Shown here one piece after another: positions 24,646 through 57,472 of a stretch of DNA of 64,000 bases (position 1 is the first letter of the stretch; each line of letters opens with the position of its first letter). The position numbers and the translations under genes were made by a program. This stretch comes from Fimicolochytrium jonesii (lineage: Eukaryota): NCBI RefSeq assembly GCF_025526975.1, contig NW_026515692.1, forward strand, positions 372,001-436,000. Reading direction: 5' to 3'. The notes below the pieces were generated by a model. It was given only the letters and a program-made list of their open reading frames with translations, was not told where the DNA came from and ran no database searches.

Positions 24646-25785
24646 TCAGATCGATATCTGACCCATCTCCGAAATGACGGATTCCACGACAGTCGGATCT
24701 ACATCCGGATCCTCCACCTCCTCGTCGCCCTCACCATTGTCCTCGTCCACCTCCTCCTGTTCGCTGTCGTCTAGTGCCGACAAGTCCACGCGGGAGTTGC
24801 GCGGAGTCGATCGGTATGCGCGGTGAATGAGAGCGATGAGATGATTGTACACGCGCGTGCATCCCTCCACGTCCATGATCTTGCCCTTCAGCTTCCCTAC
24901 CACGATTGCTGACCTCTTTACAAGGATGCGATCGCCCCTCGGCCGGAGATATCCAAACGCCCATCGCTCCCCATCGGTATAAGCAAAGTACGTGCGGTAT
25001 GCTCCACGTCCGCGGGCCTTGGTCCGACGGTGGCATAAGATCGTGCTCGCTTGAGCAAGCACTTGGTAGTATCCATTCTCAAAGGTCTTGCTTTTCTTCG
25101 CCTCGACGACACATAGTGCAGCGTCTGATGCAATGTCCTGTGTGGGGCGCCGGTCACCTGGGAAGTGCCCCACCACGAAGTCGAGCGGGCCATTGTACCG
25201 GACGACGTCTTTTCCCAATCCCTCATCCGTGCGATCAACGCTTTTCACCAGTGTAACTCCAATCTCCTCCCCTACAAGGAGATGTTCTTTGTCGTGGTCC
25301 ACTACGTCCAGCGCGCACGTCAGATAGATCGAGATTACTGTTCTACGAGAGCTTTCAGATACTAAAAGGCTGCGCTGGCGGTGTCGGCCCAGCATTGACG
25401 TCAGATCGCTGGGCATAGGCATGGACCCGATGGCGGGGGTCCACGTCGCGTCATCTTCCTCGAGGCCAAAGTCTCTCATAATGGTGTCCGGAAGGGCCTC
25501 CGAGAAAGCTTCTGCTCGGGAATATGCCGGTTCTTCTTCCGCTTTGACGTCGATCGAGGCTCCGTCCGTGAAAGTCTGGAGGGAGAGCGACAAATTGTAG
25601 TGCGGAAGACTCGCACTCGGGGGCATGAAGCCAATAAGCCTCAGGGAGTCTTCCGTCCAAAGACTGGCGCTGACGATACCCATTTGTTCGAAATAGAAGA
25701 GGGGGAGTCTGCCATCGACAAGGTCGATGGTCACGGTGCGGAAAGGCCTCGTTCGCACTCGTTGCTGCGGTCGAAAGAGGCGCAA
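24646..25785 (-). CDS. PD-(D/E)xK restriction-endonuclease-fold protein (Crinkler/CR-REase-like)
   Basis: YNGPLDFVVG ... LCVVEAKK ... YQVLAQ ... YTDGERWAFG matches the D..ExK..Q..TDGxxWxF pattern of fungal CRN-type REase domains. Confidence 0.7.
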   Translation of the reverse strand: MRLFRPQQRVRTRPFRTVTIDLVDGRLPLFYFEQMGIVSASLWTEDSLRLIGFMPPSASLPHYNLSLSLQTFTDGASIDVKAEEEPAYSRAEAFSEALPDTIMRDFGLEEDDATWTPAIGSMPMPSDLTSMLGRHRQRSLLVSESSRRTVISIYLTCALDVVDHDKEHLLVGEEIGVTLVKSVDRTDEGLGKDVVRYNGPLDFVVGHFPGDRRPTQDIASDAALCVVEAKKSKTFENGYYQVLAQASTILCHRRTKARGRGAYRTYFAYTDGERWAFGYLRPRGDRILVKRSAIVVGKLKGKIMDVEGCTRVYNHLIALIHRAYRSTPRNSRVDLSALDDSEQEEVDEDNGEGDEEVEDPDVDPTVVESVISEMGQISI

Positions 25786-27152
25786 AGTGGCAGACTGAAT
25801 TGTGCGGAAAAGAGCCTGTTAAGCAAACGAGGAGCTGAGGGAAACTCTCAAAGAGCCTCCTCTTACCATGGCGCAGGAGCAGGCAGTGGGTGCGGTGAGC
25901 CGTCGACACGGGGGTGGTGAAAGAGGAGGGCACTGAAGCCAAGATGCAGCCAACCTATGGTGAGAGGTAATGATTCCATCGAGTAAGAAAGAGGGGTTCA
26001 GGGTCCGACAGAGGGAAAAGTCTTCCCTGACACCGGTGCATCACGTGACTGGACGGGAATTTCCGGGGACGGAAACAAACTGAAAAGGCAGATACCGGAC
26101 AGCGTCTAGAACGATTGCGCTGACCCATTCTGATTTGTATCTACATAATACCATAAACTCTACATATATACAGTATGCGTGATTTTTTTTGTACGCCGGT
26201 CGTAGTGTTGTGTGAAAGTGGTCGATTATTCCCTGAGATAGGTCCTAAATCGGGTCGTTCGCGGGCGGAGATTGTTGTGCGAAGACGCGAACTATCCTGT
26301 CGGTTGCTGTCATTGCGTAAGCAGACGCGTAAGCAGTCTGGTCACGGTCAGAGAGACAAAGACCCCGACGCCAGAGTCCGGAGTATATGGAGGGAAATCA
26401 AAACTTGCGGACGACGTGTCTCGTCACGTGAGGAGCATGTGCATGAGGCACATCCCTGCGACGTGAGCGGTCATGTGCCACACGAGTTTAGTCTCATCGG
26501 TATTCAATGACATGACGCCATCAATGTGATTTGACATCATCTTTGTTGTTGCCGTCGTGTGGCGTTTTCAACCTCATTTCCACATCACCTCGCCGCAACG
26601 ACGCAGTGACGTGAAAATCGACAGTTGAAGTCACGTGCGAGGTCGCTGTCAGTCCCACCTTCACCTTGCCCCCTTTTCGTCCCAATGATGCAATAAGCGT
26701 GTTTTTTCCACTCCCAAACATACATACGCACACCACATGTTATGATCTCGACGACTGAGGCGGAAGCGGAGTAGAGAAGACAAGGCGAGAGTGATAGGCA
26801 ACAAGAGATTGTATTGGCGAAACAAGAAACAAGGACTAGAACAAGAGACGAGAAGAACTGGTGTTGATCTGCTGGGGAGGAAGGGAATGGCCGAAGAGGG
26901 GGCGGCTATTTATAGATGAACAACCCAGCAGAGCAAAGAACAACAACAAGATGGGGATGGGTAAGCGCCAGCTATGCTACCTAGCCTAGAGCGGGCGTGG
27001 CGAGCGTAGAGAGCATTGCTACAGCTGCTGGCTGTGGAGAAGTATTGGGGGTTGACAAATGGCCAGAGATTGGCTCACAGATGAGCGGGGTAGAGGAGGA
27101 GCGGCGATATTGCGGGGGGATTGGCAAACGAGAGGAGAGCGGAGGAGTGGTG

Positions 27153-27247
27153 TTTGACATTGACATTGACACTGACATTGACACTGACATTGACATTGAC
27201 ATTGGCGTTTGACATTGGCGGTTGACATTGGCGGTTGACATTGGCGG
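27153..27247. repeat. Microsatellite (GACATT/GACACT)n grading into (TTGACATTGGCGG)3
   Basis: Directly visible. Confidence 0.9.
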
Positions 27248-31106: not shown

Positions 31107-32167
31107 ATTTCTGTACCAAGTAGAAGCATACGTTGCGTGTAGTTCAGATGATATCTTTGACGAACGAGACAATATAAAGTCATCATAATCATGCAGCTTG
31201 AAGAAACGTACAGTAGTCTTTTCCCTCTGCGTCCGTTTCATTGAAGCTCACTCAAAAGACCCCCGAAAGCAAACCACCTACCAATTTTCTCAAATATTAG
31301 CGGGTGTAAACTGCATATCAATTATGATGCCATTGCTCATGATGTTTCCACGACCAGGTGGAACTTGCAATCCTGAGAGAAATCCGACAGACTCAACGGT
31401 CTGGAAGTGCCGAAAAGCATTTTACGCCGATGTGGCACATTGGTGGAAGAGCTGACAAGACAGCCCGCTGTGGCAGGCGAAGGCGTTGAGAAGGCGGAAC
31501 GAATGGCGATGGATTGGAACAAAATGGTTCGGGACGGAAAATTTGTGTGAGTACGGCTGCTGGCCTGCGCGAGTGACAAATCACTGAACAACGTGAAGTG
31601 CTCTAAAAGGTGATGTGCCAGAAATCAAGGCTACCGCAAACCACCCCCTGCCGGCGATGCCCGCTGAGCAGGATATTCTGGATGCTTTCCAACAACTGGA
31701 GCCCAACAAAGGCGACGTGCACCGAAGCTCAAGGAAGCTGGGCGGAATTTCCATAAACACATCAGATGAAGTCGAGCGGCGGAACATTCTCATTCGTGTA
31801 ATGCTGTGGCTGGGCTGCGACGTTTCTGCGATTGCTGTCACGACCGACATCCACAATATAGCGGTTGCAATGTGGTTGCAATTTATTGGCTCAAGCTGTG
31901 CTGGGCAGTCGAGGATACGTGACTTCAGCTCTCCACAAAATGACGAACTATTCTTAAGCAATCACCACCTGAGCTGTGCGGAGGGGGTCCAAGACACAGC
32001 GACAAAGCAAGCAGAACAAGCCTAGTCCAACAAAACCGAACCACGAACGCTAGAGATGTCCTCACACACGGGACATATTTAACTCCGAATAGTACGAGAA
32101 AGACTTCAAAAATGCTCAACTCTGCATTGTGACATATTTAAATCCGAATGGTACGATAAAGTGCATC

Positions 32168-32695
32168 TTAGCAAAGTGCATCAACGGCTGCATCAACAGC
32201 TTCAGCGTACTTGTTTGCATCTTCCCTCAATTTCTTCCGATCAAATGTCCCTTCGCGAAGCACCGTCTTGCTGGGGTCGGTGATGATCGCGCCGCAGACT
32301 TTTCCACCCTTTCTGAGAATCGAGACTCTGGGGTCCTCGGTAAGGACCTCTTCCACATTCTCGGCGGACTGGCCCCAATGGATGGAATCACCTACGAGCC
32401 TCACGTGTAAGGAGTTTCCCATCGGTTTTGACGAAAGGCACAGAGGCGGTTTATCGTCAATATCTCCCTCATACGGAAAGAGGTGTGGGAGTAGCTCCGC
32501 TTCAGGAAACTCAAGCGAAACTATACGACGGTCCCCGCTGTAGGATATTTGAAAGCCATCTTCTGAAACATCCTCGGTCCCGATGATGACGCCGTGGGTA
32601 GCTCGTACGAAATAGAGTTTGAAAGTTCCGTCGAACTGACGCCATTGTACATCCCTGGCCAACGTGTTAGCAAGCGTACAGATTTGATCAAGCAT
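32168..32695 (-). CDS. Tandem DUF2283-like domain protein (putative antitoxin)
   Basis: Two repeats of L-Y/H-x-x...T/V-E...I/V-x-x-x-x-x-G-x-I/V-x-x-x-E/I: LYFVRA..TEDVSEDGFQISYSGDRRIVSLEF and LHVRL..VEEV..VSILRKGGKVCGAII. Confidence 0.5.
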   Translation of the reverse strand: MLDQICTLANTLARDVQWRQFDGTFKLYFVRATHGVIIGTEDVSEDGFQISYSGDRRIVSLEFPEAELLPHLFPYEGDIDDKPPLCLSSKPMGNSLHVRLVGDSIHWGQSAENVEEVLTEDPRVSILRKGGKVCGAIITDPSKTVLREGTFDRKKLREDANKYAEAVDAAVDALC

Positions 32696-32870
32696 GAATG
32701 TTTCCTACCAGAATAACTCATTTTCTTTACTGTTCTGCATTGTGAAAGAAAATTTGACAACTCCTTCAGTTCTGGGTTTGAACACCGGTGAATTCATCTG
32801 CAAACTATAGACGGAGAACAGCGAAATAAACTCGATCAGCAAAGAGCCAGGTACTGCAAAATTATCAAAT

Positions 32871-33230
32871 TTACTGAACCTGAGTCCACTCATGTCGTCT
32901 GACTCTACGATCGCAATATGTAATGATTATCCACGGGAGCACGCCTTTATCGACAACGACTCGAATAACGCCTTCGTCTGCGGTCCAAAATGTGTTTGGT
33001 AGAAGCAAGTCAACAGCCACCCTTGTGGGTTGGTCGTTTCTGTTGCCGGGTCTTTCGACGATGCGATTGGTGGTTTGCGCTTGATGGCGACGGAGGATAT
33101 TTTCAATCGTTTGAACGTTGTGACGTCGGCGGCCGAGAGCGTTATCTTTTGCTTCGTCTGACCAGGAGAATGTTGTTGTGTAATCGATGTTTGCAAGATG
33201 TGCAACGAATTTCTGGTCTCTTGTACCCAT
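32871..33230 (-). CDS. Small DUF4258/RelE-like protein (putative RNase toxin); possible short last exon ending near 32766
   Basis: FSWSDEAKDNALGRR..VQTIENIL ... IRVVVDK..PWIIITY resembles the DUF4258 pattern. It lies directly upstream of the DUF2283-like ORF. Confidence 0.4.
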   Translation of the reverse strand: MGTRDQKFVAHLANIDYTTTFSWSDEAKDNALGRRRHNVQTIENILRRHQAQTTNRIVERPGNRNDQPTRVAVDLLLPNTFWTADEGVIRVVVDKGVLPWIIITYCDRRVRRHEWTQVQ

Positions 33231-33976
33231 CCAGCAAATAGTCTATGTTGCCCACCAAGAACTTTCAAAAAAAGCGAAGTGGGAACAAGAACATCAACCG
33301 TGGGGCCCTTCGTGTGGTCAGCAGTATGGGCCACCGCTTCTGCCGAAAATACATGGGAGGTGAACTTTTTCGTTTTTTTGGCTCAACATGCAGACATTTT
33401 GATCATGCGCGCGAGAAGTCAACATTTGACCATGAGAGATGAACATTTTGCTATATATGTTAAATCAACGGACGAACCACACTCACTTCAGGGTCTCAAG
33501 ACATCACAACAGTCACCTCGCTCAATGACACAGCACGAATCAACAAAGGAAGAGGCACAAAGGTATAGTAAAATGTATTACAAATTGAAGCAAGCACCAA
33601 CGACGTACATCCCGTCTGTACGGTTTCCCTTCTGTTGGTTTGACTCGATGTCACACATTGGCAAAGTGAACCAAGGTCGTTCTTCGACAGAGCTCTCCAC
33701 GTGATTGTCCCAGGGATATCTGCGGTAATGTGTTCGAGAAACATGTTGCCGCTAGCTGAGCGAGCGGACGAATCCGATCCAGCTCTTTGCAAAGCTGGAG
33801 GATTTCTGCTTCTTTTTTGGCGATGGTACGGTCCTGTTCAGCGATGATGAGTATCAGGAATATCGTCTGCCGGTGCGACCACTGGCGCCGGCTGACAAGG
33901 ACTGCAAGCCGAAGCTCGTCGGCAATGGATCCCTCCGCCTGCTGTTTGGATTGCGGCCAACACCTTCAACGGCCTC

Positions 33977-35517
33977 GTGGACCGCCGCAGGAACGGCATC
34001 GCTGTAAGGGTTTGGCGAGGTGGAGAAAGCTATTCCAATAAGCAAGAAGAAACGCAAGCGGCGAAGCGTGGGATACGGTGGGAACCGTGGGATACGAACT
34101 TGTGGGATACGGTCCTCGCTGGAGCGCTGAAAGGAGCCGTAAAGGGCGCCTTGGTCGCACTAGGGCTCAAGGAAGCAGAAACGATTGCGAAAGCATTGTT
34201 CGAGTTGATCCTCGGCGGCGGCAGTGAACCCGAAATATCGACACAGTTGGAGCAAATCAAGGAAGCTCTCGAAGACCTCGACCACAAAATCGACCAAAAC
34301 TTCCATGCCATTATGGCAGCCATCAAAACGATGCCAGCGTGGGAAGCGCTCAATAACATCAACACCGACTACGGCTTGATGTCCACTTACATGGAGGCGG
34401 CATACGCCAAGGCGAACACATCTCAAACGGCTTATAACGACCTGTACAACCATGCCCTGAAGGTGCAGCAATGGGCCCCTACATACGCCAATACCATCTA
34501 CGAGAACATGGTCCATGACCCCAGTATGGGAGGATTGAAAGCGATCTGGACGTCTGCCTTGGATGTTTACAGGGATGTCCGTACGGCGGCTACACCTTCA
34601 TCAAAAGCTTCTCGCTTCATTACGCCGGTGGGGTACGGAAAGCCGCAAATCTCCTCCATTTCGCTTCCCGTGTGTTGATCGACGAAGAAGAAAAACAGAA
34701 AGGTATCACAGTGAACGAGGCTGTCAGGAGTATCGCCCTCGGTTTGGAAGCCCAACTGGACACTTGGGACGCCTACTTTGAGGTCGGTGGGGAGGTAGCC
34801 GACGGAGACAACACGATTACGGTAAACGACCCGGTGCTGCACCCTACGTACTCGCGGTGGGGCCGCGCATTGCTGAACGCGTATAACACCACGGGCACTC
34901 CACAGGCCAACTTCTTGTGGCGAGTCCCCGGTGACGAGGAGAGCGCGACCCGCCACATGGTCACGTCCTGCACGACTGGAACATATATCACCCACAACCG
35001 AGATGCTGAGGCATACAGCCGCGACGATGCGCAGGGGGCCTTTTTGAAGTGGGCGGACGCGCCCGTTACTTTCGACAATCCCGAGCCAAACGAAACCTTC
35101 CAGCTGACGGTGGATACAAAGCTGAACAGCTTCCACATCAGGACCTTTCCCAAGCCCGGCTGCACGGACCAGATCAAAGAGAATTTGTTCAGGGTTCAAT
35201 ATTTGTTCAAAGAGAGTTTGCACATCGGAGACTATCCCGATTTTTACGCAAGTTGCCAAGTAGGCGAGGAGGAGCCGGAATGCCCACCCGGCGAGATTTG
35301 CAAGTGCAACACGTTCTATTTCACGCTGAACGACAACGGACGGTTCCAAGTTCGCAGCAACTGGGACGGTTTCAATGAGCTTCCCCGTTACCGTCCGGTT
35401 CTCTACTGGGATTTTGAGGAGCCTAAGAACGGCATCTGGGTTCAGGATGAAGGCGACGGCGCAGCCGGAGCCAAGTACGAATTCTATTTCGATCCAGTCC
35501 CAGCGCCAGAACTATGA
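33977..35517 (+). pseudogene. Frameshifted protein with a pore-forming-toxin-like helical N-terminus and beta-rich C-terminus
   Basis: Hydrophobic helix pair followed by GGGSEPEISTQLEQIKEALEDLDHKID. ORFs 33977-34678 and 34672-35517 join through a frameshift near 34570. Confidence 0.4.
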
Positions 35518-42023: not shown

Positions 42024-42037
42024 GATTATGAGCCCTG
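42024..42037 (+). promoter_or_regulatory. Primer-binding site complementary to the tRNA-iMet anticodon arm (half-tRNA priming)
   Basis: GATTATGAGCCCTG versus GGTTATGAGCCCTG used by copia/Ty5-type elements (one mismatch). Confidence 0.8.
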
Positions 42038-42112
42038 GCTTCGCCCGCAACTAGCAGACGGTCCAGGATAAAGAACTCACGGTCTCCAGTCACCGCTCTC
42101 TTAGAAAGCACC

Positions 42113-44067
42113 ATGCCACCTAAGGATTCAACAACCCAACCTCAGAAGGGCTACGCAGCTGCTGTGGCAGCCGGCAAGCCCTCCGCTCACAACACGCGGT
42201 CCCAAGGAGGAGCACTCCTGGGACCCCTACCTGCGGCCACTAGAGGAGGAGGAAAGAAAGTTCAACAACACGCTGTTAAGAGTTCTGAACCCTCGATTAA
42301 TCAGCGCTCTGGCATTGACTCACGTACTCCGCTTAATCAAGGCGTAGCCCGTCATGCCGACTTACGCAGTGAACCAACACCTACCCCGCCTTACAAAATG
42401 CCTGGTGAATTTGTGGATGAGAAGAAGAGGAAGGAGGAACTTTCTGCTACTATTCCAGAAGGGAAAGACGCAACCACGCCATATGTGGATGCGCCTGAAA
42501 CACGCGGACACACCGGAACCGAAAACAACCCCTTCCTGATGGATTCCATTCAGGAAGAACCTATGCCTGTCAAGCAGGAAGAGGAGGTGATTCAAATAAA
42601 GGATCAAATAGCCAGTCTGACTGGATTAGTTACCTCGCTCTTGAATTCGGACCGAGCGCCACAACAAGGCGGACCTACCGTCCCCTCCGTGAACCCGCTC
42701 ACTCAGTCGCCAGTGAACAGCACTCGCTCTCATTATTCGACTAGCCTTATCCAGGCAAACGCGCCATATATGACCTCGGTGTCACCGGCACCCCATGCGC
42801 CTCCTCAGTGCGCTATGGCCTACTCCGTCCCATACGCTTATAAAGCCCCGGAACGGCATCCTTACTTTCAAACCCGTTCTCAGAGCCCTCCTTTCGCTGA
42901 AATTCCTCACGAAAGTGCATCTGTGGGATCTGTTACTCCCGTAACACCCCCTACGGCCAGCAAATCAGCTTCCAAAGTCTTCATCAACACTACGATTAGT
43001 AAACTCGGCACCTACAACGGCGACCCCAAAGTTACCAAGCTTCAAGGGTTCATTGATCACATCGACGTGATTATGAAGTACCAGATGATTTCGCCTTCCG
43101 AATGCGTAGATTTCGTCGTCAACGCGCTCACTGGACCAGCTCTCCAGTGGTGGAAAAGCCTTCCTGAAAACGAGCGCTTCTCCATAATTTCATGGCATGA
43201 TATTGAAGACGTCTATGGACTGCCTCCTCAACTCGGATTACGCTCCGCGATGTTAAGGCGCTTGATTCCCCGGACTCATCTGCCGCAAGTTCTTCACAGA
43301 CTGCGCGCTCTGAAGCCCAAATCAATTAACCATCAAGGTTTAACCAAATTCGTTGCCCAGTTCAACCTTTTGGCTGGACAACTCCCCGGGCTCCCGGAAT
43401 ACGTGCTCTGTGCCGACTTCCTTCAAGCCCTTCCTAAGAATCTTAGTACCCTGATCACTGCTCAGGCTCAGTACGACGATCTACTTAGTCCTTCTCAAGA
43501 AGCCGCGATTTGTATAGCCGCCCAGCTCAACGAGAAGACCCTGAGTGCGCCTCAGTCGGGCGCATCCGCTGCCCACGTTACTTCCGCTCTACCTCAGAAG
43601 AAGAAGAACAAATGCAAGACTGGCGGCTCTAGAGGCTCCTGCTCTACGCAATCCTCGTCTTCTGACGCAATCAAGAAACCTCCCCAGTGCAAATACTGCC
43701 AAAGGGAAGGCCACAAGTCAGAAAACTGCTTTACTTACAAAGCTGTCAAGGATATTATGGACAAGAACGCGAAAACTAAGCAGGACGCACCCGCTGCAGC
43801 CTCCATGGCTTATGCCATACACGTCAAGTCCAACCAGCCAACCATGACGTCCGCATCTTCAAGGCGAACGTGGATTCCGGTTGTACGGATCATATGACCC
43901 CCTATATCGAGGAACTAGATCCATCTTCTCTTCAAGACTACCAACGCCTTATTGGACTCGCGGATTCGACTACCATTACCTCTCAAAAGAAGGGTACCGT
44001 ACTTACCCAACCTACGTCCGGCGGCAACGTTCTCGCTCTTTGCGACGTTCTATTGGTTCCCAGTCTT
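42113..44067 (+). pseudogene. gag: Copia gag-protease, frameshifted near 43870
   Basis: 594-aa ORF with LTGPALQWW and CKYCQREGHKSENC. The gag frame reads TWI and the protease frame reads VDSGC over the same GTGGATT, consistent with loss of one copy of a 7-bp repeat. Confidence 0.88.
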
Positions 44068-44087
44068 AGGGTTAGGGTTAGGGTTAG
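44066..44087 (+). repeat. Interstitial telomeric tract (TTAGGG)3TTAG at the copia / recombinase junction
   Basis: CCCAGTC-TTAGGGTTAGGGTTAGGGTTAG-TCCATG. Confidence 0.95.
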
Positions 44088-44312: not shown

Positions 44313-46384
44313 ATGTCGGAGCAATCAACCCGCGAAACGAGCTTTAACAGAAGCTTCAACACCGAGTTCAACACCGGCACAAGCGACGCAGCATTCAGCG
44401 ATGACGAAGACACAATTGAGTCGGATCTGCGACTTTCTAGAAGGGAAAAAATGACGGATGTAGACGACGCGGACCTTGCAAACGGAATAAAGTCGGTCAT
44501 CAAATTCAAGTGGTAAGTACACTTGTAGATACAATCTTGGTTTCTTCCTGCGCCCTTTTTTACAAGGCGACTCAACTAAGCGTTGTTCTTGATACACTGT
44601 AGTTACACACTCCAGGACTTTGAAATGACGACGTTGAACCACTCCGAGTTCCACCACTTGCGAGAGTTTTTCAGCACCCCACGACCGCGCGCCAAAGGAA
44701 TCAACCGAGTGCGCAATCCTCAGACAATCGCCAAGAGTCGTGAACGAATTTGCGGGTTTCTCGGCTGGCTGAAGCAATCGGGACGCGTAAAGCAACCATC
44801 GTTTAAAGACTTTCACGACTTGGACCTTTTCTTGGTGAGCGTCCCTCCCTTATTTGACAAGTGACATTTTTGGTAATATGTCCATAACATTTGTCGCTCA
44901 CCTGGTCGGTTAGGACAAGTATGTAGAAGGATATCTCGTAGGAATTCGCGGGCTGTCACACGGCTCCGTCGCAAACGCCATCACAGCTGCGATAGATGTG
45001 CACAAATTTCTAGAGTCGGAATCGTCTACAAGACTGCCGGGAACAAAAAAGTCGATGAGCATCACACGTCTTCAAAGCTACCGAAACAGAAAGCAGACTC
45101 TTGCAGAGCGAGAGCGTCAAGCCACTGTAGATGAGGATGGATCGACAATTTTATGGGAGCAAGTTTGTAATGTGCTTCGGCAGTACACGCAGCCAAAAGA
45201 ACATTAACATATTCCACTCCAGTTTCTAGAAGCGATTCGCTGCCAGAAAAAAGTGGTCGACAGCCTGCTAGTTGACGCACAGGACAGCCGGCTTCCGGCG
45301 CAAGTGCAAAAATACTTGGCGCTCGCTTTCTACGCGGCAATTCCACCCTCCAGAAGCAAAGAGATTCGACTTCTTTTGGACCGAATCCTTACCGAGTCAG
45401 AAAGTCGAACCTCGCTACAAAATCACATCACCCTTGTTCAGGGGCGCCATGTGATTGTTGTAAGGTATGTGGATATGGTGGCGAGCGGTCATTTTTCCGC
45501 GGAACACTACCTTATCGTCTTTTGTTTCCACCCTCTTTTTCTTCCAGCGACTACAAAAACAGTCTTTATAATGGGACAAGAGACGCCATCGAACTCCCTG
45601 ACGATTCAAGCATAATTTTAAAGTATCTTACATACTTTCTCCAGCCGATAGTTCGTGCGCAAGTTACGTCGGGGAAAAAACACGGCTATCTTTTCTGCAA
45701 AAACAACGGTGACGCATTCGACAGCGCGGGCGAATGGTCGGTGTATCTCGCCAGGATTGTCGAAAAGCACATCGGAATCGCCAACATTTCCAGTAACGCC
45801 TTGCGCCATTCTTTCACGACGTATATGGAGTCTGCAGTGGAAAGTGACCATGTTCGGCTACGCGAGAGCACCGCGTACGCAATGCGCCATAACATCAGGT
45901 ATAGTACCGCAATGGCTATCTGCGGAGTGTGAGGACAGTATCGGGACTGAATTCTTGACATCTGTAAAGGATCCAGCAACACACATACAACAACACCCCG
46001 TCTATAGAACGCAAAAGAAAAGCGGTCGACTTTGCTAGTCGCGTGTTCAAGCGCATAGTGCTGGAAGATTCGGCAACAGAAGCGGACTCCGACAACGGCG
46101 CACCACCCCTTGGAGCACTTGTAGGAACGAAACTGCTAAATGGACGACCTGGATTTGGAAAAGTAGTGCGTATCGAGAACGCCGACGCCATCATAATGCT
46201 ATTAACGCCGCGCCAGACCGAAGGGGCAACTTTGAGCGAATATGTCGCTGACATCGGAAGTCTATTACGACGCAACATAGCTAGGGAGATTCTTTATCCT
46301 ATTGATGGTGTTTATACTAGAGAGCAAGGGGTGTATGAGGTCTTTACGTCTTTAGAAGATGTGAAAAGGATGTTGGTACGGTAG
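44313..46384 (+). CDS. Tyrosine recombinase, OLV11/Polinton-like-virus type; exons 44313-44512, 44603-44834, 44914-45162, 45223-45464, 45548-45898, 45970-46384 (562 aa from this ATG)
   Basis: Five GT-AG introns keep a single open frame. Catalytic motifs PPSRSKE (R), SDYKN (K), NALRHSFTT, AYAMRHN and IQQHTYN (Y). The frame is open upstream to about 44143, so the gene may be 5'-truncated. Confidence 0.88.
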
Positions 46385-46437
46385 CTGTCGATTCGTGGGA
46401 GCTTTGACGCGTGACGCGTGACGAGCTGTTAACAGCA

Positions 46438-46850
46438 ATGAAAAAAGCGATTGTCCAATTTCAGCGATTGGAATTGTGTTAAGGAATGAAAGAGCGATTG
46501 CGACGCTCAAGGGGGATACGATTGAAAGGGGGGGGGGGGGGGGGTGAAAGAGCGATCGTCAGCTATGGGCTTTGTACTAAAGAATGAAAGAATGAATGAA
46601 AGAGCGATTGTCGCGTTAAGATCGACACGATGAAAGGGAAGAAAGAACGATTGTCGCGTTAAGGTCACACGCACGATGAAAGGGGATGAAAGAGTGATTG
46701 TTCCTTTCAAAGTCAACAGGATGAAAGGGGAAGAAAGAGTGATTGTTCCATTCAAAGTCAACACGATGAAAGGGGAAGAAAGAGCGATTGTTCCATTCAA
46801 AGTCAACACGATGAAAGGGGAAGAAAGAGCGATTGTCCCTTTGATGTCAG
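46438..46850 (+). repeat. Array of about ten AAAGAGCGATTG-like motifs, including five tandem units of about 45 bp
   Basis: ACACGATGAAAGGGGAAGAAAGAGCGATTGTTCCATTCAAAGTCA repeated over 46626-46850; dispersed cores near 46442, 46489, 46547 and 46599; G-run 46527-46544. Confidence 0.92.
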
Positions 46851-47651
46851 CTTTTTTCTTGACCCTAGATAGAAAAGATAGATGTCCTTTTTTATCTTTG
46901 GTTATGGATTTAAATCTGTTGATTTTGCAAATTTGTATTTCTAAGTTTCTATAAGTTCTACATGACGGCGTGACTAGAAAACGGATTTTGCTATAAGGCA
47001 TCCAGGTCTGTAGGGTCAAAACAGTTGAGTTTCTTCCGCTCCCTGCCGCCTCTCTGATCAGATGGTTTCATTTTAAATCCTTTGTGAACAAGGGCAACTG
47101 AGCTTCGTCCAATATCCCCATTTAATTCTGAATCAGGTTGAAGAGGGCACTCAATGGCTTGCTGATTGTCGAAAAGGAGAAATTGTTTTCGATGGCGAGC
47201 GTATATACGAGTAATTGGAAGCCGTCTCGGTGACTAACCTGGGGGAGCCCAGTTTAAGGTTTTTCTCAAGGAGTTTAATACTTTCGTTGAACCACGCGCC
47301 CTGGCTCAGGCGAGTGATTTGGACGGTTATCTTTGCAGACATGTTTTGCATAATTGTTAATATGTAAAGGTTTACTAAATGTAAATAGCATCATATCTTT
47401 AAATACTGTTTTTGCAACACGCGGAGCGTCACTTGTTTGAGCGTTTAACTTAAAGAGAAACTAACCGACATCTACCGTCTGCATAGCGCACTTGCCCCTC
47501 CCCCCCCCCCCCCCTCTCATGGAGCGGTATTTTGGAGCACCGCGCTTTTCCAGACTCTTGCAGGCTTTGGATGAGAAAGGAGAAATTGGCGTTCAATAGT
47601 TCATATACTGCTTAGTCAGCACGAGCACCTTGGTGTTTTGGACAGGATGTT

Positions 47652-48104
47652 CTAATCTTCGGGCAGGAACACAAAAGCAAAGCCTTCGCAGAAATCTAGT
47701 TGGTCGTATTTCTTGATACAAGCAAGTGCAATGACGCCAGTGGGGTTATTAAGGATTTCATCATAAGTTTCTTTCCCAAAGCTTGGCACCAATTCTTGAA
47801 AGAAGTCAGCCGCAGAATAAACTGGATACAAGCCTTTGGTCCCTTCAAAACAGAATTTATACACCGGTTTGGCACTTCTAGAACACGCTTCTCTTGCGCT
47901 TTCACGCACGGCGTAATGTGCGTCCTGAAGTCTGTAATGGAAGTAGTCATACATCCTGCTTAAACGTTTTTGTTTCCTTTTGCTGCATGATTTGAACAAG
48001 TCGTTTCCGATGCGATGGTCTCCGTGCACTGGATAGCGCACCGTATCGACAAATTCCCAGAATTCACTTTCAAGCTCCAGCTGCGTGCGTTTTGTTTTGG
48101 TCAT
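47652..48104 (-). CDS. Hypothetical protein (150 aa, intronless)
   Basis: ATG-started ORF with an AT-rich upstream region. Confidence 0.6.
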   Translation of the reverse strand: MTKTKRTQLELESEFWEFVDTVRYPVHGDHRIGNDLFKSCSKRKQKRLSRMYDYFHYRLQDAHYAVRESAREACSRSAKPVYKFCFEGTKGLYPVYSAADFFQELVPSFGKETYDEILNNPTGVIALACIKKYDQLDFCEGFAFVFLPED

Positions 48105-48194
48105 TATGTGTTTATTAAATGTATATAACCGTATATCTTCAAATAGACTTTTTGCAACGCGCCGTTTCCCAATTTATACAAATAATCGACGCGA

Positions 48195-48362
48195 AACCGA
48201 TGCAAAATCTGATGTAACATGCGCCGAAAACCGATGCAAATTCCGCATCAAAACCGATGCAACTATTGTCTCCATATATAAGCAACCAATCCGATGCAAA
48301 TTACATAGGTGATTTCATATCCGGTGCAAATGACAGAACATGACCTCATATCCGATGCAAGT
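48195..48362 (+). repeat. Six to seven dispersed CCGATGCAA motifs in a divergent intergenic region
   Basis: Copies near 48197, 48231, 48254, 48291, 48321 (CCGGTGCAA) and 48352, plus degenerate CTGATGTAA; TATAAAA follows at about 48372. Confidence 0.85.
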
Positions 48363-48417
48363 CTAGGACTATATAAAAGAGGGTTTTCTGCTGTTTTTCG
48401 TTGAAGAAATAAATACA

Positions 48418-48777
48418 ATGAGCGACAAAAACATCTGCGGGTGCATAAGAAAATGCGAATGCGACGATGAATTGAAAGCGAAAATGGTCATCGTTGCCAA
48501 TGTTGGAGATATAGTAAATCTTATAGAAGGAGTTTGTAGTGACATTCACCTGGCGGCATCTGTCACACAAGATGCACAGCAGCTTGCAGGGGTATGCAGC
48601 GGTGAGACTGAAGAGTGACTGGGCTCGCTGCTCTACCATTTAAGGAGCCCTATGATTGTGGATTACACAAAAGCGCTGCTGAAGACCGCGCGCGAGCTTC
48701 AAGAGCTTTTGATATCAGGTAACGAGGTACACAGATATGTCAGTGCGATTTACTTCCCGCCGCCTAAACGTAGATAG
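48418..48777 (+). pseudogene. Hypothetical ORF interrupted by one in-frame TGA (48616)
   Basis: The frame continues LGSLLYHL..PPPKRR to TAG at 48775-48777. Confidence 0.5.
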
Positions 48778-49189
48778 ACTACACTATGTTTGTATTTTTG
48801 CTAATGTTTAAAATCACATGTTTCGTAATTATTGCTTTTATTCTCAATATTTGCGAACCCATGCTGCACGTGGCTGCCCCAAAACATTTCCTGGACCGTT
48901 AGATGAAACAAACGTCTTTTAATAACGAGATGGTAATTTTGTACTTTACTCGCATGGGCACGCCGCCTTTTGCTCTTCTGCTTTTTTCACTCATTCGGTA
49001 GTGTGTTTTCAGCTATTTTTTGAGACCGTCATGTTGTTGCGCTGTCGATTTTGCAATTAGTCAGCTGAGGCACCAAGGTGTGCGTTTTTGGGTCCAAGAT
49101 TGTGCTTTTTCTCCTATTGTTTACCTCGTTGATACAGCCCGACTAATGGCTTGGTTCCTGAAGGTAGGTTTCCTGGGCATCTCATACTT

Positions 49190-49702
49190 TTATAACAAGT
49201 CTTCTCTTACCCGCCGCAAGTCACTACAGATACAGGGGTCCGCACCGTCCTCAATATCCGCGATGTCGATGTTGCTTTCCTCGCAAAGATCATACATCTG
49301 TTTGAGACAATGGTCGTGATGTTCCGCTTTTTCACGGAGTCGATTCCATCCCTCATAAAGAACCTCACCCCGGTTTTTGCGTAGTATTTCCAGAATATCC
49401 TCAAACGACTCATAAAGGGACCACGAGTTCACTCCCAATGCAACAATCGTTCTTTGATACGCATAATTCCTGTTACAGAGCTGTCGGGCAATGCACATAC
49501 ACGTCGCGCTTTTCGACAGATTGTCGTGTGCCTTTTTTAGATCGTTCATTGACTCAATTATTGTGTTTTCCTGCAGTCCCCGGAGTTCTTCTTTCAGCCG
49601 GGACACCTCTGCCTGTAGGTCCTGGTGTTCGTTTTGCTGTTCGTCTTGTTCTCTGTTTGTCTCAGCGTCACCTTTCTTTATGTTTTCTGGTTTTTCCGAC
49701 AT
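49190..49702 (-). CDS. Hypothetical coiled-coil protein (170 aa)
   Basis: LQAEVSRLKEELRGLQENTIIESMNDLK heptad pattern; intronless. Confidence 0.6.
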   Translation of the reverse strand: MSEKPENIKKGDAETNREQDEQQNEHQDLQAEVSRLKEELRGLQENTIIESMNDLKKAHDNLSKSATCMCIARQLCNRNYAYQRTIVALGVNSWSLYESFEDILEILRKNRGEVLYEGWNRLREKAEHHDHCLKQMYDLCEESNIDIADIEDGADPCICSDLRRVREDLL

Positions 49703-49838
49703 TTAGCGGATTTGGATATGATAGACACTTACTTTTTAATTATAGGTTCGCAAGCGCACCTATTTCTCCCCGCAGGAAAAAAACTAGGAGAGATGATATA
49801 CAGCTAGTGCTTTTATATCTATAACAAAAGACGATCAG

Positions 49839-50714
49839 ATGTCAGACCCCTCTATAGAAAACGCGATGGAAAACGCAGTCATCACAATCGAGCAGCGCAT
49901 CGACAAAGACCTGATGAGCTGTGTCATCTGTTTGGATGAGCTCGACTTTCCCATTATTCAATGCTCAAATGGACCGCATTTTATATGTGCGGCGTGCGTT
50001 CCAAGAATCGACAAATGCCCAGTTTGTATGAGCGGAGGCTTCCTACACAATCGTCACCTCGAAAACCAGCTGATGCCCTTTGCAACATCTTGCACGGTCC
50101 CAGGCTGCGATCGCAAGTGCCTTCCTTGGGCAATAAAAAGTCATGAGCGCCGATGCGCTCATAGCTTATTTCCCTGCTTTATCTGCGGGAAACAGGTCTC
50201 TCTCCATGGTCTCGCAAAGCATTACAGCAGCGAATGCTCATGTGTGTATCAGGTGCACGACCGTTCAGGGCATCAAAGAGAAAGCCTTTTAACAATAGGC
50301 AGCTTGCATCCCGTCTTGCCTTTAAGAGACGAAAACAGCATATGCCTCTACTCTCAGGGCGTTAACCTTTTATGCAAGCCGATAGGTGGGAACTTAAGCG
50401 AGCACCCTTATTGGGGCGTCGTTGCTGTACAAAAGCCGCGCAACACGCCGACAGCAGAACCTCCTTTTGTAACGCTTCGCGTCCACGACAAGACTGGGCA
50501 ATCTTTGTCGTTTTTGTCGGTAACAATCAGAGCATTTAACGAGCTGAAACACGTTACGGCAGCGCATGCAGCCCTTATCCCCGCCATCAGCAATGACACG
50601 GAGCTCCATTGTAGCGTTCAAAGCAATAACATCTGGTTTTCCCCGCTATCAGGCATCCACTACGACGATGCGACAGATAATGACGATGACCTCGACAACG
50701 ACGATGCGACATGA
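49839..50714 (+). CDS. SINA/SIAH-like RING E3 ubiquitin ligase
   Basis: CVICLDELDFPIIQCSNGPHFICAAC..CPVC (RING) followed by NRHLE and SIAH-type zinc fingers (C..PGC..HERRC..PC..H). Confidence 0.82.
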   Translation: MSDPSIENAMENAVITIEQRIDKDLMSCVICLDELDFPIIQCSNGPHFICAACVPRIDKCPVCMSGGFLHNRHLENQLMPFATSCTVPGCDRKCLPWAIKSHERRCAHSLFPCFICGKQVSLHGLAKHYSSECSCVYQVHDRSGHQRESLLTIGSLHPVLPLRDENSICLYSQGVNLLCKPIGGNLSEHPYWGVVAVQKPRNTPTAEPPFVTLRVHDKTGQSLSFLSVTIRAFNELKHVTAAHAALIPAISNDTELHCSVQSNNIWFSPLSGIHYDDATDNDDDLDNDDAT

Positions 50715-50734
50715 CATGAAAAATGTGCTAATTT

Positions 50735-51412
50735 TCATCCGGGTCTCAGATTACCATAATCGACCCAGAATGCTATCACCTCCAAAAGCTCGTTCTTGCT
50801 CCCTTTAAACCACTCGCAATGTCCTTTGGTGGTTTTACAGCAGCACTCGATATGACCAAGCCATTTGTTTTTTGTCTTTAGTTCATTGTGTATCAAGTGC
50901 TCGCACAAGCGATGGCGGCTTACCTTCCAATACCCTTCTAAAGTAATAGGTTGTTTGCATTGCCTCTCCCACTGTTTTCCGCGCTTTACCGGTCCCACCT
51001 TTGTGTTTGTACAACCGATTTTATACTGTTCCAGTTCTACGGATTGATTTCCACTTTTCCGAAACATATATATATACCCCGGTTCGTCGTTGCCTTTTTC
51101 CTTGTCGGACAGCAGTACGCTAAGAACGCGAAGACAACTGTGTCCCTTTAGCCGATCGGCAATCAAATTTAAATCATGATCTGGTGAGCAACGTTTTGAT
51201 GTGCGGACAGGGACAGGTGGCGGCTCAATACAAATAGGACCCAAAGGTTGCGGTAAATGGGTCTGCGATTCTAACGCTTGAGATTGCGATTGCAACCACT
51301 TGTTGCGCAATACTACTACAACCTTCTGGGGCAGAACGGACTTGATAAATAGGAAAAGTAAAGCACATATTGCTAGTAATTTAACGTGTCGCCAAAACTC
51401 GCATCTACGCAT
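50735..51412 (-). CDS. T5orf172/MUG113 (GIY-YIG superfamily) protein with N-terminal hydrophobic anchor
   Basis: PGYIYMF, YKIGCT, KRGKQWERQC, EHLIHNEL and HCEWF. Confidence 0.85.
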   Translation of the reverse strand: MRRCEFWRHVKLLAICALLFLFIKSVLPQKVVVVLRNKWLQSQSQALESQTHLPQPLGPICIEPPPVPVRTSKRCSPDHDLNLIADRLKGHSCLRVLSVLLSDKEKGNDEPGYIYMFRKSGNQSVELEQYKIGCTNTKVGPVKRGKQWERQCKQPITLEGYWKVSRHRLCEHLIHNELKTKNKWLGHIECCCKTTKGHCEWFKGSKNELLEVIAFWVDYGNLRPG

Positions 51413-51511
51413 CTTACTGTTTCACCACAAATTACTGTAGCGACAGTGCGCCCGCATGTAGCGTGTTGTGTACTTTTACGACGTGCGAATAATTAGAGCT
51501 CTGAGGTATAC

Positions 51512-51921
51512 TGCGAATAAATGGGCAACTCTTAATTTCGGCTTTATGCAAATTTGAATGATTAAATAATAAAAAGAAACAGATACTGAAAATAAATAGG
51601 CAACGTCTATGTCAGCTTTAGGCAGAATTGAATAATAAATAATAAAATAAATTAGATAATGCGAATAAATGGGCAACTCTTAATTTCGGTTTTTACGCAA
51701 AACTGAAAGATTGAATAATTAAATAATAAAAAGAAACAGATACTGAAAATAAATAGGCAACGTCTATGTCAGCTTTAGGCAAAATTGAATAATAATGCGA
51801 ATAAATGGACAACTCTTAATTTCGGTTTTTACGCACAACTGAAAGATCGAATAATAAAAAATCGAAATGATGCATATAGGTAGGGAACGTCTAATGTCAG
51901 CTTTAGGCAAAATTGGATAAA
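51512..51921. repeat. Three AT-rich tandem units of about 125-150 bp
   Basis: TGCGAATAAATGG(G/A)CAACTCTTAATTTCGG starts at 51512, 51660 and 51796; each unit contains AACGTCTA(A)TGTCAGCTTTAGGCA. Confidence 0.95.
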
Positions 51922-52048
51922 TGAACGACCAGAAGATAAGAACATCGAAATAATATATTGAGCTTGTTTTAACTTCAAAACTTTCCAACAACCAGCGGAT
52001 CCTCTTCCAATTAGTTGGTCCTGCGGTTGCAGGTGGTGCCTCACCTCC

Positions 52049-52260
52049 CTAAAACCTCTGGACGCACTCTATTATCCAAGTGAGTACCGTTCCTTTATTT
52101 ATTATTTTTTCCACAAATAGTGTAAAGAAAAATAAGAGTCCATAGGGTCTAGGGCTTTGCCGTCTTCAATAGTTTTGTATAAAAAGTCGGAAATAAATCG
52201 AAAAATTGACAATACAATCAATTTCTCAACCTATACAGCAGTATATATAGAAAAGTTTCA
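52049..52260 (+). repeat. Diverged direct repeat, copy 1 (copy 2 at 56021-56232)
   Basis: Colinear blocks CTGGAC..ATTATCC.AGTG..AAAAATAA.AGTC..AGTTTTG.ATA.AAAG..AAATTGACA..TATATA.GAAAAGTTTCA. Confidence 0.8.
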
Positions 52261-52470
52261 AGAGCGGGCTCAACCCCTGAGCCCATGGACGCAAATTTAT
52301 GGAACCGTTTTCCCCTACATGTCGGTACAGATTCGACTTACATATCGTCTGCCTGACTCGATGAATGGAGGGCGTCCACAGGTGGGAGCTCGCCAGCGTT
52401 TCCTGAGCTGTCAGAATTCTGCTCTTCTGTTCACTGAGTCATCACCGAAATCTGGAAGATTCCCGGGGTT

Positions 52471-52521
52471 ATGCCCCATATGCCCCATATGCCCCACATG
52501 CCCCATATGCCCCACATGCCC
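52471..52521 (+). repeat. 9-bp tandem repeat (ATGCCCCAY) x about 5.5
   Basis: Directly visible, about 150 bp upstream of the Rep-like ORF. Confidence 0.95.
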
Positions 52522-52674
52522 AAGAAGCAGGGCATTGTAGACCTGCACGACTTAGCCATGACAACAAGAATTTGATTTAGTGTGAACACACGATTTACAA
52601 CCCTCACCCTGCCATCCGTCCTTCCTACGCACACACGCGCACACAAACACATACAAACACACCTTTCAGCGGCA

Positions 52675-53301
52675 ATGAACGGCTCCGTAGACCCTTTCAA
52701 AGAAGTCGCAAAGTTTACAGACTATGCCGACTTCAAGCAGTGGTGCTCCCACAACAAACTCCCCCGTGGATACGCAAAGGCAGTTTGGGATTTCCACGAG
52801 AAGGAAGCCCGCGATATGGAATATAAACGCGAACGGCGCCACAACATTTTCGAGGACGGCGACCCTATCGCTGGAACCATCACGTCCCCTGCACTGCTCG
52901 ACCTTCGCTTCGACGCACCCATCCGCAAGACCCTTGTTCTTGTCGGTCCAGCCGGTTCCGGGAAGGTTCGATGGGTTCTCGAAAACAGCCCCAAGCCGAT
53001 CTACATCATTCGTTCCCCAAGCGACCTCCGCGGCTTCAGCAAGTTCCTGCAGCGATTTCCCGGTTACATCAAGTCGATGCTCTTTATCCAGATGGATTTC
53101 AAGAAATATCCTTATAACGAGCAGAGAAACGTGGTGGAAAGCCAAGTCCCCACTGCCCGTATTCCTTACCACGGACATGGGGTAAAAATCCCAGTCAATA
53201 TTCAGAGGACATTTGTCTGGAGCGGCGACGGATTCCCGTTTGGAGAAGAAGCGGGGGTCAGGCGTAGGATGCATATAGTTAATACAAATCTTGCTGAGTA
53301 A
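52675..53301 (+). CDS. CRESS-DNA-virus Rep-derived SF3 helicase domain (no HUH domain, degenerate Walker B)
   Basis: KTLVLVGPAGSGK, PKPIYII..SDLRGF, KSMLFIQMDF (usually IIFDDM), VKIP..RTF and PF...VRRR. Confidence 0.75.
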   Translation: MNGSVDPFKEVAKFTDYADFKQWCSHNKLPRGYAKAVWDFHEKEARDMEYKRERRHNIFEDGDPIAGTITSPALLDLRFDAPIRKTLVLVGPAGSGKVRWVLENSPKPIYIIRSPSDLRGFSKFLQRFPGYIKSMLFIQMDFKKYPYNEQRNVVESQVPTARIPYHGHGVKIPVNIQRTFVWSGDGFPFGEEAGVRRRMHIVNTNLAE

Positions 53302-53422
53302 GCACAGGCATCGAGGTGTCTGTGCTTAAAAGTAATGGAACAGTTTAGATTTTGATTTTTTCGCATGCATCATAAATCACTATATTACACAAATCACGCC
53401 AGGAAGTAGCGGCAGCCAGCGA

Positions 53423-53980
53423 TTATCTAGCAGACGTCGGCTTTTTGCTTCGCCTGGTATCGATGCCCTGAGTCAAGCTGCTACGCAAACCCGGCGGAAA
53501 ACTTGCTTCGTCCACAGGCGGTTGCCTACGGTACGCACGAGCGGCGTTAATTAAGTGTATTGCACGTTTCCAGGTAGTGGAGAAAATGCGCTGGACTTCA
53601 GTAAAAGATGTCTTCTGAGGAGCTGCTTGTCGTGCTTCGTTCAAAACAGTCCACAAATCTTTCATGAGCACCCGTAATGTATTGTCGTCCCAGCTAACCA
53701 TTTCCTCATATGCCGTGCGCTTTCCGCCATCGGCGTGATTTGCGCCACCCTGAAAGGGGTCGGGTGTGGTCGTTGCTTGAAGGACGAGTACCCAGAGTGC
53801 CAAGAGATACGCACGTTCGACGTCACCATCATCCGCATCGCCGACGGTGCTAGCTTGAGACTCTGTATCAGCGCTACTTGTGTCGGCATCGTCATTTTCA
53901 GAGTGCTGGCTCTTGGCAATTAGCAGAGCAAACGGGTCGTCGTAATTTTGTAACTGGTCGTTCTTAGAGATATGAACCAT
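53423..53980 (-). CDS. Hypothetical protein (185 aa)
   Basis: ATG-started ORF with an acidic N-terminus. Confidence 0.5.
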   Translation of the reverse strand: MVHISKNDQLQNYDDPFALLIAKSQHSENDDADTSSADTESQASTVGDADDGDVERAYLLALWVLVLQATTTPDPFQGGANHADGGKRTAYEEMVSWDDNTLRVLMKDLWTVLNEARQAAPQKTSFTEVQRIFSTTWKRAIHLINAARAYRRQPPVDEASFPPGLRSSLTQGIDTRRSKKPTSAR

Positions 53981-54107
53981 TTCTGAAACTTAGCCAAGAA
54001 TAAGTTTTCGACAGCCGGTCGACCGCACTAAATTTGCGCGGATGGAAATTGTTGGCTAGTGTTCATGAACTTACATTGCGATCTGCAGCATAGGATCTCG
54101 GACATGT

Positions 54108-55057: not shown

Positions 55058-55639
55058 GGCAGAAGGTTTTTGTCGCTGCAACTGGCTAGCTGCGTATTGC
55101 AAGCAGTTTATTGAGGGTCGTAGTTACTGGAATGAGTTTTTTGGGCTCAGTCGTGCGTTTGCGCGTGTCGTTTTTGAACCCATATGGACATTCCCTTCAT
55201 CATTTTTGAGTTTCATGTGAGTTGAACTATTAAGCAATCACGTCTGTTGACTTTAAACGAGTAGTTACTCACTGACGTTACTCAATACGATCTTTAATGG
55301 TTTTTGCGTGTGGGAAATGTTTCGATAGCTTGTATCTCCATGGACTATCAGAAAACCTGGGGAGGAACCCGGCTCGCGTTCAGTGATTATGTAATATCAT
55401 CCGCGCGGTCGGTCAAGCGTCTCGATCGATCGTAAGAGGAAAGAAGGGTAAACGAACACATAAATGATTGCCCATTTCTTACAATCGACCAGTTTATTTG
55501 GACTTGATGAAAACAACCGGATATGTGTATTTTGGAAAATATAAAAAACGATAATAAAGTTATTTGGTTAATAGCGGAAAATACGTCCGGTCGCTTAAAA
55601 AAGAAATGAGTATTATGGGTCAGATATAGTGCGAGTTTT

Positions 55640-55930: not shown

Positions 55931-56020
55931 TACCTGTCGAAAACAAATATGAACAAAACAACCGCCGCGTATTCCTCAAAGCGCGGTCGGTTCCAAAGGT
56001 TCTAGGGTTTTATTCTTAGT

Positions 56021-57421: not shown

Positions 57422-57472
57422 GGTTTCTTTCTATACCTTAAGCCAAAGAAAAACATTTTTCATAGTAAACGC

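Follow-up and report, generated by a model that had tools for sequence, protein, structure and literature searches.

Type II toxin–antitoxin (TA) operons are considered a prokaryotic feature, in part because an mRNA in eukaryotes is normally translated for a single open reading frame (ORF). Among the predicted prokaryotic pairs is a DUF4258 toxin followed by a DUF2283 partner, an arrangement that a first-pass annotation of the DNA described here had named as known and that is indeed listed, in toxin–antitoxin order, in supplement rows of Gerdes 2025 (PMC11980606). The available text of that article files DUF4258 under RelE/ParE and calls the family undescribed, and our literature search yielded no bench evidence for DUF4258 activity. 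A 2026 preprint assigns DUF4258 to the Colicin-like BECR group; most characterised proteins of this group cleave tRNA, often with a His near the pre-alpha helix, and the preprint names such a conserved His as likely catalytic (10.64898/2026.08.28.747851). For fused TA genes from eukaryotes, the author leaves open whether they reside in a host genome or in an endosymbiont (PMC11980606). Bicistronic loci of green algae that are translated by leaky scanning are recognised, in the available sections of the report on them, by a weak start codon of ORF1 and a scarcity of ATGs ahead of ORF2 (PMC11291117).

Here we describe a pair of overlapping genes of the chytrid Fimicolochytrium jonesii that resembles the prokaryotic DUF4258–DUF2283 pair. 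The window, by which we mean the whole stretch of DNA analysed, comprises 64,000 nt of contig NW_026515692.1 (positions 372,001 to 436,000, forward strand; assembly GCF_025526975.1). No description of this eukaryotic pair was found in the literature searched on DUF2283, DUF4258, TA systems in eukaryotes or Rhizophagus irregularis, and fungal toxin–antidote systems. Neither DUF2283 nor DUF4258 appears in two supplements of a survey of horizontal gene transfer in early-diverging fungi, and the main text of Makarova 2009 mentions neither DUF2283 nor COG5428.

Layout and surroundings of the gene pair

The two small, neighbouring ORFs that had first drawn attention to the locus are both present on the minus strand, adjacent and co-oriented: ORF A (33230–32871) encodes 119 aa and ORF B (32695–32168) encodes 175 aa. 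ORF A had been described as ending with IRVVVDK..WIIITY; the motif is there, and the frame continues for 14 residues beyond WIIITY. ORF A is unannotated, and its exact sequence is absent from the protein collection. ORF B corresponds to the annotated F. jonesii gene EV422DRAFT_209359 (protein P0001, 223 aa), the sole protein retrieved with ORF B as query, whose public model starts at the ATG at 32893 and splices out 32708..32655, a removal that takes out the stop preceding the 175-aa ORF. The ATG at 32695, from which the second gene had been thought to start, falls inside this 54-nt intron (32708..32655) and was rejected as the start of gene B. The features of the locus are as follows:

32871..33230, minus strand: ORF A, predicted RNase toxin of the DUF4258 family (BECR fold), based on homologues and on 6 of 7 listed variants being synonymous
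33153..33155, minus strand: codon of Glu26, in a column that holds His in 17/17 bacterial and Glu in 4/4 eukaryotic homologues
32894..33227, minus strand: stretch of 334 nt between the A start (T at −3) and the B start (G at −3), free of ATG in all frames
32871..32893, minus strand: 23-nt overlap of A and B, the annotated B start lying in the +1 frame upstream of the A stop
32709..32893, minus strand: gene B exon 1 as annotated, with more in-frame starts at 32797 and 32740
32655..32708, minus strand: gene B intron, 54 nt (GTAGGA / GCTAAC / CAG), phase 2 within a Trp codon
32168..32654, minus strand: gene B exon 2, predicted antitoxin (repeat 1, linker, degenerate repeat 2, C-terminal helix)
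32486..32653, minus strand: DUF2283-like repeat 1, assigned with a homologue-only HMM; homologues pass the Pfam cut-off
32261..32443, minus strand: DUF2283-like repeat 2, assigned by alignment position only and not significant alone
32798..32879, minus strand: candidate intron without read or gene-model support; acceptor 32805 keeps two ORFs, acceptor 32798 fuses A and B (308 aa)

The in-frame candidate start of gene B at 32740 carries A at −3. An intron had been suggested to follow ORF A, and its letters are in place (GTTCAG at 32879, GCTGAT at 32840, TATAG at 32805), with no read or gene model using them. The acceptor near 32706 that was proposed to fuse the two ORFs in frame consists of letters 3–4 of the annotated intron's donor; because it overlaps the donor of intron 32708..32655, it is unlikely to be used, and this candidate was dropped. 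Rather than the gene structure originally proposed (intron or fusion), the evidence favours a gene A with its own stop and an overlapping, spliced gene B.

Ordinary host genes occupy 1–21 kb of the window, and the pair lies amid orphan ORFs. A 31-nt repeat in two copies (90% alike) is located directly 3′ of the B stop (32072–32161); a search for terminal repeats flanking the pair detected none that was convincing. Adjoining the pair on the opposite strand, at 33896–35517, are two long ORFs of 260 and 332 aa that overlap and are probably one spliced gene. Elsewhere in the window are a 390-aa ORF (24646–25818) that has no library match and whose LCVVEAKK motif we take to evoke PD-(D/E)xK nuclease domains, a Ty3-type gag ORF (42032–43897) followed by a TTAGGG run (44066–44087; further TTAGGG-like runs at 55856–55930), and tandem repeat arrays at 27155–27247, 46590–46849 and 51508–51920 (units of 6, 13, 45 and about 140–150 nt). 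A 241-aa ORF with a GPAGSGK motif (52576–53301) has no significant Pfam or PHROG match, resembles by eye the helicase part of CRESS-virus Rep proteins, and has a 9-nt tandem repeat just upstream (52471–52533). A virus-like block of lower G + C content extends from 45276 to 63612 and contains an integrase-like ORF (45276) and genes for a Sina-type RING protein (49797), T5orf172 (50738), a D5 primase-helicase (57723, 807 aa) and a Ulp1 protease (60743); it is possibly an endogenous giant-virus or Polinton-like remnant. The pair had been proposed to lie inside a fungal accessory region; the nearest virus-like genes are 12–29 kb away. Carriage of the pair by a mobile element is plausible. Giant-virus capsid remnants are reported from F. 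jonesii in the available text of PMC13533422.

Eukaryotic relatives and homology of the two proteins

A metagenome scan returned three loci (L001, L002 and L003), of which L002 and L003 are 99.9% identical, so that only two are independent. L001 (33% GC) is Glomeromycotina-like by sequence; L003 (49% GC, CpG 0.41, TGCA 3.3-fold) presumably comes from a green alga, going by its composition. Each of L001 and L003 has an A homologue with its own stop and B directly after it, in L001 with the same overlap register as in the window (11-nt overlap), and A ends at its own stop a few residues past a conserved Trp in window, L001 and L003 (3/3 DNA loci). In Glomus cerebriforme, P0028 is annotated as a single fused protein of 339 aa with an A domain and a tandem DUF2283. 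Conserved linkage had been named as a check on the pair, and the A–B order is indeed kept in 3/3 eukaryotic DNA loci (window, L001, L002=L003) as well as in the fused P0028. Upstream of its pair, L003 also carries an integrase-like ORF (311–1306; PHROG 1, E 1e-4; 3.6 kb from the pair) and a second, Crypton-like recombinase ORF recognised by eye (2123–3457). Gene B of L001 has an in-frame TAG at about 968–970, with gene A intact, which is either a broken antitoxin copy or a sequence error.

Gene B contains an intron of phase 2 in the Trp codon before repeat 1 (TG|GT...AG|G) in 3/3 DNA loci, with a length of 54 nt in the window, 98 nt in L001 and 72 nt in L003. Contamination is excluded by an intron that is common to all three loci, and its identical position means that it was gained a single time, before the copies spread by descent or by transfer between eukaryotes.

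The reference families were DUF4258 (PF14076, Ntox49; gathering cut-off 25 bits) and DUF2283 (PF10049; Pfam cut-off 23 bits). The window ORFs A and B have no direct match in Pfam, NCBIfam or PHROGs, and a PDB sequence search with them gave no match, so that the proposed DUF4258-then-DUF2283 identity, when checked by HMM, stands through the homologues and not through Pfam matches of the two ORFs themselves. Window A remains below the gathering cut-off of 25 bits, as does its best homologue, P0039 (22.5 bits), and the A homologue of L003 matches DUF4258 over model positions 1–70 of 71 (E 1.4e-4), just below the cut-off. Searched against 31 proteins, ORF A matched solely the N-terminus of P0028 (E 6e-5), and a word-indexed search identified no relative among 2 candidates. 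A profile of three eukaryotic A proteins aligned with bacterial DUF4258 (hhalign 96.8%, E 2e-10), and the bacterial DUF4258 HMM scored window A at E 8e-7 among 16 proteins. A blind search of 401 cyanobacterial genomes with the A profile gave nine matches at E ≤ 1e-3, all DUF4258-like and 9/9 with a DUF2283-like gene directly behind (the ninth being L032); among the 20 cyanobacterial loci examined, 14 were DUF4258-like, each with a partner gene, and 6 were chance matches.

The DUF4258 hallmarks (Arg, LRV strand, Pro, IT strand) are present in window A, and Arg34, Arg90, Pro99 and Thr104 are kept in 4/4 eukaryotic A proteins. The His of the bacterial xxHA motif (17/17 bacterial rows) is replaced by Glu in all four eukaryotic proteins (Glu26 in window A), a shared change that may reflect altered chemistry, attenuation or loss of the predicted RNase activity. 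The low-confidence model of the A homologue of L001 (P0037, pLDDT 51) gave BECR-type folds for all of its top 20 matches (TA toxins, colicin/CDI RNases or RegB), at Z scores of only 3.9–5.3, and the Atlas model of P0028 residues 1–112 best matched a DUF4258 cluster at TM 0.65/0.83, which is below the Atlas naming bar. Judged by the profile comparisons, ORF A is a member of DUF4258, a family of predicted RNases with a BECR fold; strict DUF4258/DUF2283 membership fails on the Pfam score and on the His.

For gene B, an exhaustive phmmer search with P0001 gave eight matches, namely itself, two spurious ones and five relatives, among which three are named proteins of Rhizophagus; P0002 and P0004, long repetitive proteins with unrelated Pfam matches, were dropped from the relatives. 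P0001 scores no Pfam DUF2283 hit and hence lies below the 23-bit cut-off, which is exceeded by homologues: it is reached by 4/5 phmmer relatives, by 4/7 proteins of a further homologue set and by the gene B protein of L003 (29.7 bits). A profile search with the B family retrieved 27 proteins among 2213 candidates, and all named ones are from Glomeromycotina or F. jonesii. The family has two repeats joined by the linker H.F...D.KPPL. Two DUF2283-like repeats had been claimed for the second ORF, and the claim stands for repeat 1 (38.6 bits against a homologue-only HMM; 0/1000 shuffles as high) and not for repeat 2, which alone scores −1.1 bits and is not significant (221/1000 shuffles as high). 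The tandem DUF2283 repeat is real in the family: the repeat-1 HMM also matches 16/19 second halves at E < 0.05, but not the second half of the window protein. In alignments of repeat 1, window B is homologous, across the domain itself, to proteins that carry DUF2283; P0001 alone gave no significant match to the bacterial DUF2283 profile (hhalign 1.4%).

In the AlphaFold model of P0028, confidence is high across both DUF2283 repeats and a C-terminal helix; the N-terminal domain has a pLDDT below 50, and Foldseek with this model found nothing at E ≤ 0.001. Repeat 1 is structurally closest to chain C of PDB 7vmc (CdiA/CdiI), which we take to be the immunity protein (Z 5.8, rmsd 2.0, 52 residues; the Z score is below the trust level). 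In the Rhizophagus models P0031, P0034, P0035, P0036 and P0012, tandem DUF2283 pieces are joined to kinase or PF04045 parts or follow a short ORF-A-like piece; these odd models may reflect either errors of gene calling or copies inserted into host genes.

In the A tree, the four eukaryotic proteins form one group (97/94), which is placed beside four cyanobacterial proteins ending in KYWR (99/97). In the B tree, which is weakly resolved, the eukaryotic repeats are on the same side as the partners of those four cyanobacterial genes. The bacterial sampling for the donor question consisted of cyanobacterial genomes only. A prokaryotic origin of the pair, as inferred at the outset, is supported through bacterial homologues of both parts. 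A GTDB scan with the tandem DUF2283 family confirmed 0/35 pattern matches, scans of viral contigs confirmed 0/35, 0/14 and 0/20, and a tblastn search of plasmids and phages with P0001 found nothing. By these comparisons, the locus is homologous to a TA pair predicted in prokaryotes, and it resides in spliced form in three or more lineages of eukaryotes.

Translation signals, transcripts and variants

The three A genes contain one ATG in 962 nt, counted in all frames, where 14.9 are expected from composition and 11.4 from the rate in 17 bacterial homologues (P 1.3e-4 for the latter). Because the idea of ATG depletion came from the window, independent tests of it are provided by L001 and L003; without the window, one ATG is observed against about 8 expected (P about 0.003). 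Bacterial homologues of A contain 4.6 ATG per 334 nt and the B exons 7–13, and in the controls 0/47 coding stretches and 0.8% of window stretches were free of ATG. The all-frame count was used because in-frame Met is scarce in the bacterial homologues too (10 in 17 proteins), and in-frame Met depletion was rejected as evidence. The base at −3 is T, C and C at the A starts (3/3 pyrimidine) and G, A and A at the B starts (3/3 purine); by this context, the A starts are weak and the B starts strong, as leaky scanning predicts. Both features used for the green-algal loci in the available part of PMC11291117, a poor start context of ORF1 and a low number of ATGs ahead of ORF2, are present in the A–B sequences, which bear sequence marks of bicistronic translation. 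ATGs upstream of A occur in the window at 33294, 33354 and further. In L003, the ATGs of the spacer are located between a donor 3 nt past the A stop and acceptors just before the B start. The region 4928–5041 of L003 has an out-of-frame ATG 7 nt before the A start, with a purine at −3, and a donor AG|GTGAG (4978) that together with an acceptor near 5041 could yield an A isoform without the first helix.

Contigs from two RNA libraries match A at 96–99%. One RNA library has contigs on each of the two ORFs, none of which spans both, and these runs are of uncertain source organism and RNA nature. A contig of one RNA library ends at 32655, the acceptor of the B intron, which is a weak hint of splicing. 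In three metagenomic runs, over 19.9 kb, no other gene was covered by long matches. The listed variants of A, from which differences near contig ends are left out, are synonymous in the A frame in six of seven cases (P 0.001), and the seventh is a stop in a single contig of depth 3.2; in B, 3/6 variants are synonymous. This synonymous excess among the listed variants indicates that A is under selection. The stop variant in A and the in-frame stop in B of L001 suggest that some copies may be decaying.

Interpretation and comparison with known systems

We interpret the locus as a bacteria-derived DUF4258–DUF2283 pair with overlapping frames and a B intron that is likely to form a eukaryotic type II TA unit expressed from one mRNA, with a probability of about one half. 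The observations behind this reading are the homology of both parts, the A-then-B order, A's own stop in 3/3 DNA loci, an intron common to these loci and the near absence of ATGs from A. A single RNA polymerase II transcript would span both ORFs; most scanning ribosomes would bypass the weak A start, meet no ATG for ~330 nt and initiate at B. Leaky scanning would thereby yield more antidote B than A and take the place of the translational coupling found in the bacterial operon. The A protein would be a BECR RNase of small size, with tRNA or ribosome-bound RNA as its likely substrate, whose predicted active residues include Glu in place of the bacterial His, together with the retained Arg, Arg/Lys and Thr. 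The two DUF2283 repeats of B may bind A as a single-chain mimic of the bacterial antitoxin homodimer. If the locus is lost or translation is shut off (e.g. by virus infection), A would be freed and growth would halt, and this release on loss would allow the unit to persist as a selfish or defence element.

The same bicistronic complex might serve another end, which we consider rather unlikely: A would have no RNase activity after the change from His to Glu and would have a non-toxic role (e.g. RNA binding), or B would guard against DUF4258 toxins of endobacteria, which Glomeromycotina harbour. The Glu in 4/4 eukaryotic A proteins and the long retention with introns and purifying selection fit this proposal, whereas Arg34, Arg90, Pro99 and Thr104 are kept in all four and Glu is the catalytic base in other BECR RNases, e.g. 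barnase and YoeB. In addition, the layout would let more B than A be translated, which is what a harmful A would call for, and nearby recombinases and broken copies fit a selfish element. It is unlikely that the locus is instead one spliced gene for a self-neutralised TA fusion protein of ~308 aa, comparable to capRel-type modules or to fused brnTA. An intron at 32879..32798 (82 nt) or 32874..32805 (70 nt) would join the two frames, the first 32 residues of P0001 resemble a translated intron (pyrimidine-rich, CAG end), and P0028 is annotated as fused; the available text of PMC11980606 attributes 13/195 TA fusion genes to eukaryotes. However, A stops at the homologous place near the conserved Trp in window, L001 and L003, the public gene model begins B separately, and the donor in the L003 spacer lies 3 nt after the A stop, so that splicing there retains the stop. 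A fusion also offers no reason for purging out-of-frame ATGs from A only, with 7–13 per 334 nt in the B exons.

That A and B are merely neighbours transcribed separately, or that B alone is of importance and A is the remains of a decaying gene, seems distinctly improbable. Gene callers annotate B only, one A variant is a stop and no contig joins the two, but the annotated B start lies inside A, the ATG depletion and the start contexts recur in three lineages, and 6/7 listed A variants are synonymous. Bacterial contamination or endosymbiont DNA in the assembly, which the prokaryotic nature of both domain families might suggest, is effectively refuted by the spliceosomal intron conserved in three loci; moreover, the source contig is 460 kb long, the window holds spliced eukaryotic genes, and the GTDB scan confirmed 0/35 pattern matches for tandem-repeat relatives. 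Beyond the two-protein unit preferred here, we put forward only tentatively that one bacterial TA operon entered eukaryotes a single time, gained an intron, duplicated its antitoxin domain and exchanged translational coupling for leaky scanning. Under this view, elements of the tyrosine-recombinase or giant-virus type would have spread it, and it would still be active as a TA system of two proteins in an alga-like host, in arbuscular mycorrhizal fungi and in chytrids, with a toxin ORF that gene callers overlook.

If the preferred reading is true, the pair would show how a transferred operon can stay whole while the context of its start codons takes over the control of dosage, and early-diverging fungi, including crop-associated mycorrhizal fungi, would gain a candidate selfish or antiviral element. 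The retention of the downstream ORF only in annotations suggests that other transferred operons may be missed. Owing to its small size, the A–B unit lends itself to tests in yeast; no functional study of either family was found in the literature.

Linked poison and antidote genes are present in fungi in the wtf, Spok and Sk meiotic drivers and in the tRNase/immunity pairs of yeast killer plasmids, which resemble the A–B pair in this respect. These systems rely on alternative transcripts, on single proteins or on plasmids in the cytoplasm rather than on a bacteria-derived operon conserved in the nucleus, and none of the sequence searches made revealed homology of the pair to fungal poison–antidote drivers. 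Colicin-like CDI tRNase/immunity pairs (PDB 7vmc) are alike in that the low-confidence model of an A homologue resembles the BECR fold and modelled DUF2283 repeat 1 best matches chain C; they differ in that A has no delivery domain and in that the Z score of repeat 1 is under the trust level.

The fused brnTA genes and other TA fusions in the available text of PMC11980606 also combine a BECR toxin with an antitoxin in eukaryotes, including Gigaspora (Glomeromycotina), but belong to another family and are single fused ORFs, presented there without evidence of a shared intron or of bicistronic translation. The green-algal bicistronic loci, as far as described in the accessible part of PMC11291117, share with the A–B pair a weak ORF1 start, few ATGs before ORF2 and a stronger ORF2 start; they are host genes with transcript and reporter evidence, whereas the A–B pair has sequence marks and would be a transferred operon. 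The hosts also differ, with one A–B locus in a chytrid and one in a Glomeromycotina-like genome. Prokaryotic DUF4258–DUF2283 operons, such as the pair with a 4-nt overlap on the Cyanobacterium aponinum plasmid NZ_CP138350.1, have homologous domains, the toxin first, abutting or overlapping ORFs, and the same conserved Arg, Pro and Thr. In contrast to these operons, the eukaryotic pair has an intron in B, two DUF2283 repeats instead of one, Glu in place of His, and an A gene with almost no internal ATG, compared with 4.6 per 334 nt in the bacterial genes.
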